From Escherichia coli (GTDB lineage: Bacteria; Pseudomonadota; Gammaproteobacteria; Enterobacterales; Enterobacteriaceae), in the NCBI RefSeq assembly GCF_048403405.1, contig NZ_CP183129.1: a stretch of DNA of 64,000 nucleotides, one strand, 5' to 3'. The stretch's first letter is position 1. The number at the start of each line of letters is the position of its first letter. The notes below the pieces were generated by a model that worked only from the letters and a program-made list of their open reading frames with translations, had not been told where the DNA came from and made no database searches. Positions 36,972 through 46,081 of this stretch are shown piece by piece. Made by a program: the position numbers and the translations under genes.

Positions 36972-37199
36972 GAATCCTCCCGGGCGGGATAATGTTGTGA
37001 GTCAGATAAGGAGCAGGCTGAAGTCCGGAAGTTACAGGACAATGGCAGAAGGGAGACTACAGCCCGCAATTCGAAAAAGACCGCGCAGTTGCGCAGAGTG
37101 ATTACTATGGGGTATTATTCGCCAGCTGAAATATTACTTCACGTTTTATTGTTTATTCCTTGCCGCCCGCGTCTCCCAGCGCGGGCTTTTTTTGTCCAT

Positions 37200-37440
37200 A
37201 AGAAAGCCCCTCCGGAGAGGGGCTAAAGCCGCGTATCTGTATCATCATGCACATGGTGCCGGGTGCCTCCCGGTGAGTTCAGCCCGGTGCCACTAAACCC
37301 GCGTCATTCTCGTTTTGATAATCAGAGATTATACCGTCACCAGTCGCCCCTCCGCTCAGGGGGATTCACCATGCGAAATTTTTTTAACAAATGCCCAGTC
37401 TGACAGGCAACTGTCAACTTACTGAATTGTGAGCAACATA
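37200..37440. repeat. Structured repeat copy 1 (~240 bp) in the tRNA-to-nanS spacer
   Basis: Shares blocks aaagcccctccggagaggggct, catggtgccgggtgcctcccggtga, gcccctccgc.cagggggattcaccatgc, ctgaattgtgag with copy 2. Confidence 0.75.
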
Positions 37441-37685
37441 GCATTTAACGGGGAACCTGTTTTCTGCAGTAAAAAGGCCCACCGGAGCGGATGGGCCTGG
37501 AAGGATAGCGGTCATGTGATGCCGGTTTCCCGGTAACTCAGCACCGGTATCTGAGTCAACGTTTTCTCTACTGGGTCATTTCCGATACGCCCTGCCTGCT
37601 GACAGGCTTTCATCACATCTGAAAATATAGCACCCTGACTGATACTGTAGTACCTAAGGTTCCAGAAACTGTGATGTATCCGGCA

Positions 37686-37905
37686 CAGAAAAGCCCCTCC
37701 GGAGAGGGGCTGGAGAGTGGCGCTATGTGCCATTGCATGGTGCCGGGTGCCTCCCGGTGAATTCAGTACCAGCACCTGAATCCGCGATTATCCCATATAC
37801 CTACTCGCTGATTGCCCCTCCGCACAGGGGGATTCACCATGCCAGTTTCTTTTAACAAACTCCCCGCAAACCAGACAACAGTCAACCGCCTGAATTGTGA
37901 GACAT
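37686..37905. repeat. Structured repeat copy 2 (~220 bp)
   Basis: Paralogous to 37200-37440 with the same conserved hairpins. Confidence 0.75.
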
Positions 37906-37946: not shown

Positions 37947-38023
37947 TGGCGCGTTGTACTGGATTCGAACCAGTGACCGATTGCTTAGAAGGCAATTGCT
38001 CTGTCCGGCTGAGCTAACAACGC
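37947..38023 (-). tRNA. argO: tRNA-Arg (anticodon TCT)
   Basis: Clean cloverleaf read by hand: acceptor gcgttgt/acaacgc, D-stem gctc/gagc, anticodon loop cttctaa, T-loop ttcgaat, 3' CCA encoded. Confidence 0.85.
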
Positions 38024-38036
38024 AGGATACAGATAA

Positions 38037-38113
38037 TGGACCGCCTTCGGGGACCCGAACTCCGCGCAACCAGCTTCGAAGGCTGGCGCTCTTTCCTGAT
38101 GAGCTAATGGCGG
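38037..38113 (-). tRNA. tRNA-like gene, possibly tRNA-Arg (anticodon TCG), imperfect stems
   Basis: Cloverleaf can be drawn (anticodon loop cttcgaa) but acceptor and T stems each have a mismatch and the T-loop lacks the usual A58. Confidence 0.5.
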
Positions 38114-38120
38114 TATGTGA

Positions 38121-38196
38121 TGGTGGCCCTTGCTGGATTTGAACCAGCGACCTGGCGATTATGAGTCGCTCGCTCTCACCACTGAGCTAAAGGGCC
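38121..38196 (-). tRNA. ileZ: tRNA-Ile2-type (anticodon CAT)
   Basis: ggccctttagctcagtggtgagagc...ctcataa...ggttcaaatccagcaagggccacca; closely resembles ileX-type tRNA. Confidence 0.85.
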
Positions 38197-38245: not shown

Positions 38246-38572
38246 TCAAACGATTAAATCCTGAACTTCCCTGACTGTCTGCTCAAAACGTCCGGTCTCC
38301 AGTTCAACGCCAATCGCACGACGCCCGAGCGCCAGTGCCGCTTTTACCGTTGAACCTGAGCCCATAAAAAAATCTGCAACCAGGTCTCCCGGACGACTGC
38401 TTGCGCTGATTATCTGCTGCAGCATTTCTGCCGGTTTTTCGCACGGATGTTTCCCGGGATAGAACTGCACCGGTTTATGCGTCCAGACATCGGTATACGG
38501 CACCTGCGCTGTCACGCCAAAATACCGCCGCAGTCGGCATTCACAACCACAAGCGTGTTTAACGTACTGCAC
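38246..38572 (-). pseudogene. 3' remnant of a beta-class N6/N4 DNA methyltransferase gene
   Basis: 108 aa ORF holds only the C-terminal SAM-binding motif (DLVADFFMGSGSTVKAA...IGVE); no DPPY-containing N-terminal part and no room for it upstream. Confidence 0.65.
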
Positions 38573-38682
38573 AGCTTTTCAGACATAAAAAGGCCGCCTG
38601 ATAGCAGCCTTTTCACATTAAAATTAAGTTTTTCTTTACTCTGTAGTATGGGAAATTAGCATTCCCTACTGGGTTTATACAA

Positions 38683-39426
38683 CTAATCTGACGTCACACG
38701 CACCATTATACTTACTAAAGAAAAGTCATCATCAGGTCCGGCTCTCTCTATACGACGCAAAATACCATTAGAAAACTTCTGACTATTACTCATAGTATTT
38801 GATGTAAATCTGGGGCGTTTTTCCCAAACGTTATGAACTCCATCAGACATGATACACAGATGATACAACCCGTTAATACCAGGCAAATCTTTCCACGGGA
38901 TAAAATCACAGTCGTATTCCATATCAACATTTGAGGCTATGGCAGTCGTTAAGATATTTTTTCCCGGTTTATTCTTCAAATCTCTGGGTTTAAAAATATT
39001 CTGATCAATTAACATCTGATGTCTGGTATCGTCCTTCGTCAATTGATATGCTTTCTTTTCTCCAATGCAATACAAGCGACAATCACCAATATGACCAATA
39101 ATAATTCCGCTATCACAAACATAACAAAAGGTAAGTGTAGTAGCAGCTTTATCGAACTCATCATTAACTTCAGCTAACGACATAACTTTTCGCTTAACTT
39201 CAGCAAATACATTCGGAACTGCATCAAAAGATAAACTTGTCAATGCTGAAAGTTCAGCGATTGCCATGGATGAAGCATAACTGGCACCAGAGTATGAACC
39301 TACACCATCAGCTACGGCAAATAAGATGCCGTCTCCTACAATTTTTGGAGGAAGCAATGAATCTTCGTTGACCCTACCTGGTTCTTTTGGATACGAGAAT
39401 GATGAAGTCGCTATCAGCTGAATCAT
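38683..39426 (-). CDS. PP2C-family (PPM) Ser/Thr protein phosphatase
   Basis: 247 aa; PPM motifs NEDS, AVADGVGS, GDCRLY, IMSDGVHNV, DDDFSLV; AAGGAG RBS; AT-rich. Confidence 0.8.
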   Translation of the reverse strand: MIQLIATSSFSYPKEPGRVNEDSLLPPKIVGDGILFAVADGVGSYSGASYASSMAIAELSALTSLSFDAVPNVFAEVKRKVMSLAEVNDEFDKAATTLTFCYVCDSGIIIGHIGDCRLYCIGEKKAYQLTKDDTRHQMLIDQNIFKPRDLKNKPGKNILTTAIASNVDMEYDCDFIPWKDLPGINGLYHLCIMSDGVHNVWEKRPRFTSNTMSNSQKFSNGILRRIERAGPDDDFSLVSIMVRVTSD

Positions 39427-39529
39427 GACTCACTCCTTAAAAAAGAATGCGCAAAATCAAACGCCACATCATCTATTGTCTGATATCTATCATCTTTATC
39501 CATCCTTGTGCACTTAGCTATGATAGGCT

Positions 39530-40186
39530 TTATTTTTTATCATCTAAATTTAAGTCTTCAATTAACCGTCCCACAGCATAAACATCAGTCTTAACTGAAT
39601 ACTCTGCATTATATAAAATCTCGGGAGCCATATATCTTGTACTTCCCATACGGGTACCGATCTCGGTCAATTTAGTGGTATCCCCTTCGGGATTCGTATC
39701 TTTTACCAGACCAAAATCAGACACCTTGTATGTTCCGTCGCTAAATCGCAAAACATTAAAGGGTTTTATATCTCTGTGTAAATAGCCTTTGGCATGGATG
39801 TAAGCTACACCATCTAATACCATTTTCACTATTGAAATTTTTTGATCTGTTGTAAGAAGGTTGTTCGTTATTTCGTGCTCAAGATCACATTCTGCTTTAT
39901 CCATAATGAACCATGGATTCTCAACAAACAAATCGCACAAATAAATAGGAACAATATTGCTATGTACGCAATGTGATTGATACACAACCTCCCTTTTAAA
40001 ACGCCTTCTAAACTGCTCTATTTGCGCCAAAAGCTCTGGTTTTTCGGGTGCTAAAACCTTTCTAGCATAATCCCCGCATTCACCTTTATTGAGGTTGTAA
40101 ACCTTAACGTGTTCAACAAAGCCAAATGCCCCTCTTCCAATCAACTGAATTCGTTTTATAAAGTAATTACCGTGCTGTTCTTCCAT
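39530..40186 (-). CDS. Hanks-type Ser/Thr protein kinase (compact, ~219 aa)
   Basis: G-loop GRGAFGFV, Lys in YARKVL, catalytic loop HRDIKPFN, SDFG, MAPE, TDVYAVG; start set at MEEQ with GGTGAG RBS (track ORF extends to 40261); AT-rich. Confidence 0.8.
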   Translation of the reverse strand: MEEQHGNYFIKRIQLIGRGAFGFVEHVKVYNLNKGECGDYARKVLAPEKPELLAQIEQFRRRFKREVVYQSHCVHSNIVPIYLCDLFVENPWFIMDKAECDLEHEITNNLLTTDQKISIVKMVLDGVAYIHAKGYLHRDIKPFNVLRFSDGTYKVSDFGLVKDTNPEGDTTKLTEIGTRMGSTRYMAPEILYNAEYSVKTDVYAVGRLIEDLNLDDKK

Positions 40187-40260
40187 TAAGCTCACCGACC
40201 TAAATTGTAACAATATCCATATATTACAACTACAGATAAAAAGGTCCACAGAGTTAAGCA

Positions 40261-40290
40261 AAAAACCCGCACATTTGAGCGGGTTTATAC
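40261..40290 (-). terminator. tR'-like intrinsic terminator downstream of the late promoter
   Basis: On the late strand cccgctcaaatgtgcggg followed by TTTTTT. Confidence 0.65.
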
Positions 40291-40321
40291 ACTTTACAGC
40301 AATATATCACATTTACATAAA

Positions 40322-40350
40322 ATATATGCTATCTAATTGACTTTTGCAAT
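40322..40350 (-). promoter_or_regulatory. Late promoter pR'-like
   Basis: Late strand -35 TTGCAA, 17 bp spacer, -10 TATATT, about 50 nt upstream of the terminator, overlapping the Q-like gene 3' end. Confidence 0.55.
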
Positions 40351-41028
40351 ATCTCGCTGCAAAAATGCCGCTTTTTGTTGAGATCTCCTTTTCACAGTGC
40401 AAATCAGAGATTCGGTATCGAGGTTCATAAAAATGTCGAGTATTTCACGCCAGTAGCTCACATAATTGTGGCTCCAGTTGTCAGGCTTAATCCCACACAG
40501 ACGGGCAAGCTCCTGTTGCTGGTAGATATCATGTCCTATAACCCATCTCCTGACATCCTGTGCAGCCAGCCAGATTAATTTTTTCAGGCGTTCCTGTGTC
40601 TTCCCTGCAATTTTCCTGGTACCAGAGTGAGTCTTAAATTCTGTCCATGCCCACTGCGTTATCGCGATCTGATACTCCCAGCAAGTATTTCCGCTGTAAC
40701 ACCACAACAACCAGGCTTTATGATGTTCTTCAAGAGACAAAACAGCCCGCCGCCATGATGATGTAGAAAAAGCAACCTGACTGACCAGAGGAATTGACGT
40801 CCCCTTCGCCAGCGATTGTTTTCCCGGGATTGGTGGATTATCCCGCGTTATCATTTTTCCGGTCACTTCATCGCGGTACCGGATTTTTTTACGCCTGTAA
40901 CGCCCTGTATCGAACATGGCATTCTCCTGCCAGGCTTCAAGCTGACCTTTTGTTGCCCCACTCAAATCAGCGGTGGCGATAATGAGCTGCTCACGCACAA
41001 ACTGTAAATACTGGTTATTCATGCGCAC
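40333..41028 (-). CDS. Putative late-gene antiterminator (Q-like by position)
   Basis: 231 aa ORF directly upstream of the pR'/tR' unit and downstream of rusA. Confidence 0.45.
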   Translation of the reverse strand: MRMNNQYLQFVREQLIIATADLSGATKGQLEAWQENAMFDTGRYRRKKIRYRDEVTGKMITRDNPPIPGKQSLAKGTSIPLVSQVAFSTSSWRRAVLSLEEHHKAWLLWCYSGNTCWEYQIAITQWAWTEFKTHSGTRKIAGKTQERLKKLIWLAAQDVRRWVIGHDIYQQQELARLCGIKPDNWSHNYVSYWREILDIFMNLDTESLICTVKRRSQQKAAFLQRDIAKVN

Positions 41029-45001: not shown

Positions 45002-45157
45002 TTACTCCTCAGGTTCGTAAGCTGTGAAGACAGCGACCTCCGTCTGGCCGGTTCGGATTCGTACCTCGCAGAGGTCTTTCCTCGTTACCAGTGCCGTCAC
45101 AATGACGGTTAAACAGATGACGATCAGGGCGATTAACATCGCCTTTTGCTGCTTCAT
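45002..45157 (-). CDS. hokD: Hok/Gef-family type I toxin (HokD/RelF-like, 51 aa)
   Basis: MKQQKAMLIALIVICLTVIVTALVTRKDLCEVRIRTGQTEVAVFTAYEPEE matches HokD; track ORF has an in-frame upstream extension. Confidence 0.85.
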   Translation of the reverse strand: MKQQKAMLIALIVICLTVIVTALVTRKDLCEVRIRTGQTEVAVFTAYEPEE

Positions 45158-45394: not shown

Positions 45395-46081
45395 TCACTC
45401 CTTCTCTTCTTTTCCGTAGTGGAGTTGGCCAATTTTGATAAGAGGGCGTCCCTGAGATTTGCGGTGTAGATTGGTATCGCGCAGAGAATACACACAGCCA
45501 CAATATTCCTGCTGATAGAATTTTTCGCGCTTGCTGATTTCAATCATACGGGACGAGCCGCCCTGCTTGCGCCAGTTATAATCCCAGTACACCATACCCG
45601 GATAATGCGCAACAGCTCGCCGCCCACACTCGTTAACCTGCTGCATATTTTTCCAGCGTGAAATGCCCAGTGAACTGCTGATCACACTGAAACCATTTTC
45701 AGCAGCGTACAACGCTGTCCGCTCAAAACGCATGTCAAAACACATGGTACAACGGATCCCCCTCTCAGGCTCCCATTCCATTCCTTTGGCACGTTCAAAC
45801 CAGTTGTCGGTGTCGTAATCAGCATCGATAAACGGCACGCCGTGTTGTTCAGCAAAGCGAATATTTTCATCCTTACGAATTAAATACTCTTTCTGAGGAT
45901 GAATGTTCGGGTTGTAGAAAAAGATGGTGTAGTCGATTCCCGAGGCCTGAAGCGCCTCCATCACTTCACCGGAACATGGAGCACAGCAAGAGTGCAGTAG
46001 TAGTTTGTTTGCCCCGTTTGGGAGCTCCAATTTAGGCCGTTTGAAATCAGCAATAGTCATAAATATTTTTATTGGGGTCAT
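45395..46081 (-). CDS. QueH-like (DUF208) putative epoxyqueuosine reductase
   Basis: Conserved Cys motifs [12 protein letters not shown] and YCGCVYS; start ambiguous (M at 46081 or 46060); family call from memory. Confidence 0.55.

Follow-up and report, generated by a model that had tools for sequence, protein, structure and literature searches.

A mobile kinase–phosphatase gene pair of temperate phages, apparently disabled by a one-nucleotide deletion in an Escherichia coli prophage

Background

Why should a lambdoid prophage of Escherichia coli carry genes for a eukaryotic-like Ser/Thr protein kinase and a PP2C phosphatase in the place where Shiga toxin phages carry stx? The question is raised by a 64,000-nucleotide stretch of contig NZ_CP183129.1 (RefSeq assembly GCF_048403405.1), hereafter the window, in which an initial annotation had noticed such a pair between positions 38,683 and 40,261. 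The prophage concerned is complete-looking, lambdoid, stx-less and Stx-phage-like; it is integrated beside ompW, and all relevant genes of the region lie on the minus strand. Judged by sequence comparison, the pair is almost certainly a conserved mobile two-gene accessory cassette (a moron) of the temperate phages of Gammaproteobacteria, of which the window holds a copy with a damaged kinase gene.

Protein kinases have a place in phage defence. Abortive infection or defence through phosphorylation is the mode of action of staphylococcal Stk2 and of E. coli PD-T4-6, and Stk, a kinase encoded in the cI operon of the Stx2 phage 933W, reportedly excludes HK97 by abortive infection. The KKP system, which occurs in Pf6, P2, P4 and Mu-like prophages, consists of the phosphatase PfpC and the kinases PfkA and PfkB (Guo et al. 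2024, PMC11341870). Its two kinases are jointly toxic and are neutralised catalytically by the PP2C; KKP serves both as a toxin-antitoxin system and in defence against lytic phages; defence is triggered by a phage protein that inhibits the PP2C (PMC11341870). In the literature searched, KKP is the sole characterised relative; no publication was found on the two-gene module or its function, and neither the DefensePredictor paper nor that of Vassallo et al. mentions a kinase–PP2C pair. The initial remark that the pair is not a described system thus holds for the two-gene module, but has to make room for KKP, characterised in 2024.

Results and Discussion

Two genuine catalytic domains

The cassette comprises two genes:

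39530..40186, minus strand: truncated Ser/Thr kinase gene, 218 amino acids, catalytic core through helix alpha-F (RefSeq coding sequence WP_225092651.1)
38683..39426, minus strand: intact PP2C (PPM) phosphatase gene, 247 amino acids (Pfam PP2C_2, 1.1e-13)

RefSeq gives both genes generic names. The kinase matches Pfam Pkinase at 3.5e-33 (model positions 3-187 of 263) and phrog_2361 at 1.4e-88 (positions 2-212 of 415), and the phosphatase matches NCBIfam Stp1_PP2C at 2.2e-27, its residues 19-238 aligning to model positions 10-229 of 232; the NCBIfam Stk1-family and Stp1-family matches of the two proteins remain under the equivalog cut-offs. In an alignment of 34 family members, the kinase residues G17, G19, G22, K43, E66, H137, R138, D139, K141, N144, D157, F158, G159 and E189 do not vary, and the window ORF has all of them; the protein accordingly shows the Gly-rich loop, beta-3 Lys, alpha-C Glu, HRDxKxxN, DFG and APE elements of a Hanks-type kinase (PF00069). 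The AlphaFold2 model of the kinase has a predicted local distance difference test (pLDDT) score of 89, and its best fold match is PknB, at a template modelling score (TM-score) of 0.76; PknB, Stk1 and StkP are the best matches by sequence and fold together. The phosphatase likewise carries the xED, DGxG, GD, (S/T)DG and DD motifs of the PP2C/PPM family (PF13672, PF00481), with D22, D40, G41, D115, D195, G196, D233 and D234 invariant in 34 members and kept in the window. It aligns to the DGMGG and HIGDSR motifs of PstP (1txo), and its best solved-structure relatives are PstP and Stp1. Both folds are therefore genuine, as had been proposed, with catalytic residues conserved across their families and every motif quoted in the initial annotation found in the translations. 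The AT-richness that had been noted also stands up, the guanine-plus-cytosine (GC) fraction being 0.34-0.41 over 38650-40450 against 0.48-0.58 in the flanks.

The extent of the kinase gene calls for one correction. The program-made open reading frame (ORF), 39530-40261, begins at a TTG at 40261 that falls inside the U-tract of an intrinsic terminator (t1, below), which leaves the ATG at 40186, the start given by RefSeq, as the credible and likely one.

The PHROG profiles deserve a separate remark. Both phrog_2361 (415 positions) and phrog_5650 (565 positions), the latter matched by the PP2C over positions 273-520, are much longer than the window proteins, and the representative library holds a few PP2C relatives that are long as well (371-580 amino acids); fused or multi-domain relatives may exist. 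Unlike these profiles, nearly all retrieved relatives of the kinase and the PP2C have about 250 amino acids.

The pair is conserved and widely distributed

A scan with a kinase profile yielded 80 loci in IMG/VR; 40 representatives of these were used for measurements of gene gap, GC content and identity, and 30 divergent representatives for the classification of genomic slots. A PP2C gene lies immediately 3' of the kinase gene on the same strand at all 80 IMG/VR loci and at all 8 genome loci, and the pair is also present in phages Flotzy and phiES15. The check for co-occurrence suggested in the initial annotation therefore shows a widespread pairing, found in 88 of 88 loci, and no characterisation of the two-gene module was found with it. 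The gap between the genes is -4 nucleotides in about 30 of the 40 representatives, an overlap that fits translational coupling of kinase and PP2C. Pairwise identities of the two proteins co-vary (Spearman 0.75 over 780 pairs from the 40 representatives), and the genes are passed on jointly; in each of the 40 the module exceeds its flanks in AT content.

The cassette itself occurs in 48 of 5,426 complete E. coli genomes (about 1%), including those of 55989, E24377A, VR50, ML35 and BEN2908. It was absent at the DNA level from all 50,697 phage records searched, where Flotzy and phiES15 provided the only relatives, at the protein level. Kinase relatives of 241-284 amino acids and PP2C relatives of about 245-255 amino acids extend over at least 25 genera of Gammaproteobacteria, among them Raoultella, Cronobacter, Yersinia, Hafnia, Providencia, Proteus, Xenorhabdus, Photorhabdus, Serratia, Pantoea, Pectobacterium, Aeromonas, Vibrio, Photobacterium, Pseudomonas, Xanthomonas, Haemophilus and Acinetobacter. 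Of 45,455 PP2C-like hits, few belong to the tight PP2C family: about 20 clusters (50% identity) exceed 220 bits, and 83 have E-values of 1e-30 or better. The elements that carry the module are diverse, comprising lambdoid, P2/HP1-like and corticovirus-like phages, phages with E217-like tails, and non-phage islands.

At the three IMG/VR loci L070, L074 and L082, a leader of about 90 nucleotides 5' of the kinase, GAAAATTAAACCTATTGATATGGTGTGG...TGTGAGTAAGCT, is conserved. The Q genes at these loci belong to different PHROG families and the upstream terminators differ, so the mobile unit includes a conserved 5' leader.

A one-nucleotide deletion truncates the window kinase

Comparison of the window with E. 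coli VR50, which holds an intact allele, located the lesion and what remains behind it:

39533..39538, minus strand: A6 run, site of a one-nucleotide deletion (A7 in intact alleles), from the alignment with VR50
39423..39529, minus strand: out-of-frame 3' kinase remnant, which would encode IKPIIAKCTRMDKDDRYQTIDDVAFDFAHSFLRSES and contains the near-invariant pair R234-Y235

The change from A7 to A6 is the sole internal difference between the window and VR50 across 2.9 kb, and it creates a premature TAA at 39530-39532, after ...DDKK. The intact kinase of VR50 and E24377A has 254 amino acids; it runs on after ...DDKK as ...IKPIIAKCTRMDKDDRYQTIDDVAFDFAHSFLRSES, its C-terminal end reads ...KCTRMDKDDRYQTIDDV..., and its stop codon overlaps the ATG of the PP2C gene by 4 nucleotides (ATGA). 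What the window kinase lacks are residues 219-254, 36 amino acids that form two helices of the C-lobe in the predicted model and include R234 and Y235, nearly invariant in the 34-member alignment. A profile alignment places this tail on subdomain XI of Staphylococcus aureus Stk1, so that the window allele is without the complete C-lobe of a Hanks-type kinase: subdomain IX Asp, alpha-G and subdomain XI Arg are not all there. The absence of alpha-G is native to the family, which is missing about 28 residues relative to S. aureus Stk1. The initial annotation had taken the want of subdomains X-XI for a trait of the protein; the frameshift accounts for it, the intact 254-residue protein having the subdomain XI Arg. 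In protein kinases this Arg pairs with the Glu of the APE motif and stabilises the C-lobe. With residues 219-254 lost, the 218-residue protein is probably inactive or unstable, which would leave the PP2C an orphan.

The A6 allele is shared by the complete genomes of 118UI, ECO_1_S, ECO_2_R and MSB1_7C and by one IMG/VR contig, so a one-off assembly error is unlikely. Its match to the intact VR50 allele in all but one nucleotide over 2.9 kb indicates that the event is recent. On this sequence comparison the window copy is a recent loss-of-function allele, and it is the intact alleles that should be studied.

The lesion suggests another account, by which the cassette of the window is decaying cargo with no current function, its kinase a pseudogene and its PP2C a leftover. 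The loss of residues 219-254 with R234 and Y235, the truncation of the neighbouring methyltransferase gene (below), and insertion sequence (IS) elements in or beside the module in other genomes all speak for it. But the near-identity to VR50 makes the damage recent, the PP2C gene is intact, with a strong AAGGAG Shine-Dalgarno sequence and all family-invariant residues, and the A6 allele recurs in the four complete genomes and the contig just named. We regard decay without function as somewhat unlikely; it is a statement about the window copy that is compatible with the role proposed below for the module.

Genomic slots and the late region of the prophage

Each of the 30 divergent IMG/VR representatives was assigned to a slot class from the PHROG annotation of the nearest upstream gene on the same strand:

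5/30: Q-like antiterminator
9/30: Rz spanin or endolysin (with a terminase or a glycosyltransferase accessory gene downstream)
5/30: CI-like repressor or related regulator
1/30: N-like protein
1/30: Ant
1/30: other transcriptional regulator (phrog_129)
1/30: DNA polymerase
7/30: unknown

The window, phiES15 and a Yersinia prophage also belong to the Q-slot group. A weak DNA match, shared by 15 complete E. coli genomes, brought to light a copy at the cI position; only SCU-113 among the 15 was inspected. It carries a second module (locus L095, 3006-4471) whose kinase has 241 amino acids and 47% identity, within a lambda-like prophage ordered cI (an S24 repressor), kinase, PP2C, terminator, kil, gam, bet, exo. 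There cI and the kinase have no predicted terminator between them, and the module takes the position of rexAB, which is also that of stk in 933W and is expressed in lysogens. Outside prophages, the module adjoins a NACHT STAND NTPase gene in Xanthomonas, and transposase genes and a PNP_UDP_1 protein gene in Pseudomonas putida; in P. syringae it stands at the border of a P2/HP1-like prophage, beside a SocA_Panacea protein gene. The claim that the pair belongs to a lambdoid late operon is thus accurate for the window, but the module is not late-specific, occurring at cI/rex and Rz-terminase sites too. An intrinsic terminator follows the PP2C gene in the window, Flotzy, phiES15, the cI-slot copy and Yersinia.

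This distribution also bears on whether the gene encodes a minimal secreted effector kinase of the OspG/NleH kind that acts on eukaryotic host cells, an option raised in the initial annotation; kinases of that kind are minimal by nature, leave the cell by type III secretion and are activated by host ubiquitin/E2. All that would point that way is the small size of the truncated ORF, together with its AT-richness and its horizontal acquisition; the shortness is a product of the frameshift, and the best matches of the kinase are the bacterial PknB, Stk1 and StkP. The gene moreover always comes with a PP2C, is spread through prophages of many genera that include free-living as well as plant-, insect- and fish-associated ones, and sits in accessory-gene slots of phages, not in effector loci. 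On this indirect evidence we find no support for this option and consider it very improbable.

In the window the order of transcription is a DUF968 gene, RusA, Q, a promoter-like site, t1, the kinase, the PP2C, t2, a methyltransferase remnant and three tRNA genes, followed by genes for a SASA/NanS-p-type esterase, a holin and a lysozyme. The signals at issue are:

40333..41022, minus strand: Q-like late antiterminator gene (phrog_304 'anti-termination protein Q-like', 5.8e-102; RefSeq annotation in identical genomes)
40321..40349, minus strand: pR'-like late promoter, TTGCAA-17-TATATT, overlapping the end of Q (pattern match in a sigma-70 consensus scan)
40257..40286, minus strand: intrinsic terminator t1, an 8-bp GC-rich stem with U6, between pR' and the kinase
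38583..38618, minus strand: intrinsic terminator t2, directly 3' of the PP2C gene (RNA fold -20.4 kcal/mol, z -6.65)

The late region of 933W reads Q, pR', terminators, ileZ-argN-argO, stx2AB, SASA esterase, S, R. By this parallel of gene order the cassette, placed behind Q, pR' and a terminator and ahead of tRNA, esterase and lysis genes, occupies the stx slot as a late-operon accessory element, in agreement with the initial annotation. The pR'-like arrangement recurs, with -10 TACATT, in E24377A and NY1601. Terminator t1 folds at -15.5 kcal/mol (z -4.5; none of 200 shuffled sequences folds as well) and is kept in E24377A and in L028. Terminator t2 is also found in E24377A and is homologous to the terminator 3' of pR' in NY1601, which has a Q 84% identical to that of the window and no cassette: there pR' is followed by the t2 homologue, a 65-amino-acid ORF and a full methyltransferase gene. 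A query of joined flanks found no E. coli genome with contiguous flanks at the megablast level, and the cassette-less layout is therefore taken from NY1601, according to which the cassette and t1 sit between pR' and the original tR' (t2).

Two candidate signals in the leader of the kinase gene were rejected. An extended -10-like TGnTACAAT at 40212-40204 has no -35 and lacks the TG in E24377A and L028. The inverted repeat TTGTAA...TTACAA, considered as an operator or hairpin, is not kept in L028, and the leader folds at a z of only -1.1 relative to shuffled sequences.

An exact 11-nucleotide direct repeat, TGTATAAACCC, brackets the cassette at 40281-40291, just 5' of t1, and at 38671-38681, just 3' of the PP2C stop codon. 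The copies are 9/11 identical in E24377A, and the repeat may be a recombination junction left by insertion of the cassette.

At the Q slot, the simplest reading of these pattern matches is that the cassette would be transcribed late, in dependence on Q. From this follows a further explanation, that the pair is a host-takeover or timing module of the lytic cycle, expressed only once Q antitermination has occurred, alongside the lysis and morphogenesis genes: the kinase would phosphorylate host or phage proteins late, comparably in function to the T7 gp0.7 kinase, which is not a late protein, and the PP2C would limit the effect. Placement in late operons and t1 are its main evidence. A terminator stands between the antiterminator gene and the kinase, with lysis genes after the module, in the window, phiES15, Yersinia, L070, L074 and L082; nine representatives lie on the late strand between lysis genes and terminase; and a consensus scan found no independent promoter 5' of the kinase in the window, including the interval between t1 and the kinase. 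Against this, accessory genes of late operons often have promoters of their own. Other copies of the module, furthermore, belong to the cI operon and would there be expressed in the lysogen, or lie outside prophages beside defence-type genes, and a purely lytic function does not predict that the kinase should be lost while the PP2C is kept, as described in the next section. We judge a lytic-cycle role unlikely.

Asymmetric decay of the pair

Of about 90 loci, five combine a disrupted kinase with an intact PP2C: the window allele, L030 (a 10-bp deletion), L060 (a nonsense change, giving an in-frame stop), L091 (a frameshift near residue 226) and L090. No locus in this set has an intact kinase and a broken PP2C. 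The IMG/VR locus L090 (1-2534) contains three tandem partial kinase copies that correspond to residues 4-200, 77-227 and 111-241 of the query, and 3' of them a 366-amino-acid PP2C ORF that scores 508 bits; rearrangement or duplication of a module may explain this locus. In SY033 both genes contain IS elements, and other genomes have such elements in or beside the module.

This asymmetry is suggestive: it fits a toxic kinase held in check by a protective phosphatase.

A proposed kinase toxin and phosphatase antitoxin

Of the readings considered, a role in exclusion or abortive infection is the one that the genomic context supports best. Our tentative proposal, to which we would give a little under an even chance, is that the module is an exclusion or abortive-infection system with the kinase as toxin and the phosphatase as antitoxin, disabled in the window copy. 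The kinase would be a growth-arresting effector that activates itself by phosphorylation of its activation loop, in which T174 is nearly invariant in the family. The co-translated PP2C would keep the kinase and its targets dephosphorylated. If the balance were disturbed, for example by a superinfecting phage, kinase activity would be released and the infection aborted or the invader excluded. This is the logic shown for KKP, and toxicity, defensive role and expression timing are what we infer from such likenesses and from the contexts described above.

KKP and the present module have in common Hanks-type kinases and a PP2C encoded in one operon of Gram-negative prophages, and both are horizontally mobile. 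They differ in architecture: KKP is a PP2C-kinase-kinase triplet encoding proteins of 300-430 amino acids each, with a cold-shock domain in PfkA and an FHA domain in PfkB, and needs both kinases for toxicity, whereas the module has two genes of about 250 amino acids in the order kinase-PP2C and no accessory domain. The triplet is absent from all 88 loci, where the kinase is followed by the PP2C with no adjacent second kinase, and the fusions are likewise missing: only Pkinase and PK_Tyr_Ser-Thr domains are detected, and family lengths of 241-284 amino acids leave no room for more. Phage hosts and slots differ as well, the module using the lambdoid Q, Rz and cI slots.

The Stk protein of 933W is also a eukaryotic-like kinase of a lambdoid (Stx-type) prophage, and some modules share its position after cI. 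It is only 24% identical over the catalytic core, has 348 amino acids and no phosphatase partner, and lies in a slot unlike that of the window copy. Stk2 and PD-T4-6 are single genes with additional C-terminal regions and no PP2C, in contrast to a kinase that is always partnered by one. The pairs PknB/PstP, Stk1/Stp1, StkP/PhpP and YegI/PphC show the same opposing logic of kinase and PP2C within one operon, but those housekeeping kinases are large, usually membrane-anchored, equipped with PASTA or other sensor domains and part of the chromosomal core, whereas the module consists of bare catalytic domains on mobile elements. With lambda rexAB and with other accessory genes of cI operons or late operons, such as bor, lom and stx, it shares insertion slots, AT-richness and a terminator after the genes; the proteins are unrelated, and the likeness is confined to position and lifestyle. 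It seems possible, at somewhat less than an even chance, that the module is a distinct minimal defence family apart from KKP, Stk2 and PD-T4-6 and absent from the 2023 PADLOC library, in which the translationally coupled PP2C would restrain the alpha-G-less kinase and double as infection sensor, and which temperate phages have moved between rex, stx and bor slots.

Likeness to KKP admits yet another explanation. KKP controls induction of the Pf prophage by phosphorylating the silencer protein MvaU (PMC11341870), and the module could similarly regulate lysogeny or host physiology, its kinase/phosphatase balance setting how far a host nucleoid or regulatory protein is phosphorylated, with effects on prophage induction or on some trait of the host. 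Some copies do adjoin cI, N-like, Ant or Q regulators, and all 40 representatives of the cassette are AT-rich. Movement among unrelated phage types and non-phage islands argues against a phage-specific circuit, however, and Pfam finds neither a DNA-binding nor a sensor domain in either protein. Such a regulatory role is, in our estimate, quite unlikely.

Several observations weigh against the exclusion or abortive-infection proposal itself. The excess of kinase loss amounts to about 5 events versus 0 (one-sided binomial, about 0.03), and some of these may be assembly errors. The kinase matches the PADLOC models mad6, PD-T4-6 (1.4e-34) and Stk2 (1.7e-27) in its generic kinase domain only; the alignments cover the catalytic core (model positions 11-201 of 327 and 161-348 of 500), and 933W Stk scores about the same against these models, for which reason we discarded the three matches as evidence of membership. 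For the PP2C, the 2023 PADLOC library holds no meaningful model (best hit 0.0035). Late operons hold about half of the representatives assigned to a slot, an arrangement just as compatible with a lytic-cycle role. Finally, t1 separates the cassette of the window from pR', and the scan detected no promoter between that terminator and the kinase, so that expression in the lysogen, which defence would require, is unproven at this slot.

The methyltransferase remnant and other neighbouring features

Two further features lie downstream of t2:

38246..38533, minus strand: DNA methyltransferase pseudogene, C-terminal third only (PADLOC MTase_II, 238-333 of 333, 2.5e-50)
37947..38196, minus strand: three tRNA genes (Ile2/CAT, Arg, Arg; ARAGORN, Rfam), as 3' of pR' in Stx phages

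The methyltransferase remnant, annotated as a pseudogene, had been recognised in the initial annotation and attributed to replacement of the 5' half of the gene by the cassette. The remnant is real but its origin is different. E24377A has the same cassette and t2 together with an intact 65-amino-acid ORF and a methyltransferase of 349 amino acids, so the cassette did not replace the 5' half of that gene. Window positions 38760-38535 align to 3-228 of the E24377A sequence and 38532-38121 to 1411-1822, which marks a separate 1,182-bp deletion relative to E24377A. Its junction lies at about 38533-38535, downstream of t2, and it removed the 65-amino-acid ORF (TrmB-family in the NY1601 annotation) and the 5' two-thirds of the methyltransferase gene.

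The tRNA at 38121-38196 is called Met (anticodon CAT) by ARAGORN and tRNA-Ile by RefSeq; it is presumably of the ileZ type, reading Ile through lysidine modification, as in 933W. The interval between the Arg tRNA and the SASA esterase gene, where Stx phages have stx, is occupied by two strong tandem copies of the small RNA STnc100 (RF02076) on the minus strand, at 37194-37403 and 37681-37871, with 165 and 136 bits against an Rfam gathering score of 47. Both end in a terminator hairpin, and a weak third match of 30 bits, below the threshold, lies between them at 37469-37642. Between the replication genes and the DUF968/RusA/Q block, the prophage has genes for the type I toxin hokD and for the epoxyqueuosine reductase QueH (about 45002-45157 and 45395-46060, mapped from L097).

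Conclusions

After KKP, Stk2, PD-T4-6 and 933W Stk, the concept of kinase-based defence is not in itself surprising, and the value of the present family lies in its being an easily testable defence candidate, with Q-slot copies in about 1% of complete E. coli genomes that include the model pathogens 55989, E24377A and VR50. If the proposal is true, the module would be the simplest known phosphorylation-based anti-phage system, made of two bare catalytic domains of about 250 amino acids without sensor or adaptor, and kinase/phosphatase modules would share their slots with rexAB, stx and bor. It would then also offer a compact system in which to study the sensing of infection by a PP2C and the choice of substrates by a kinase that lacks alpha-G.

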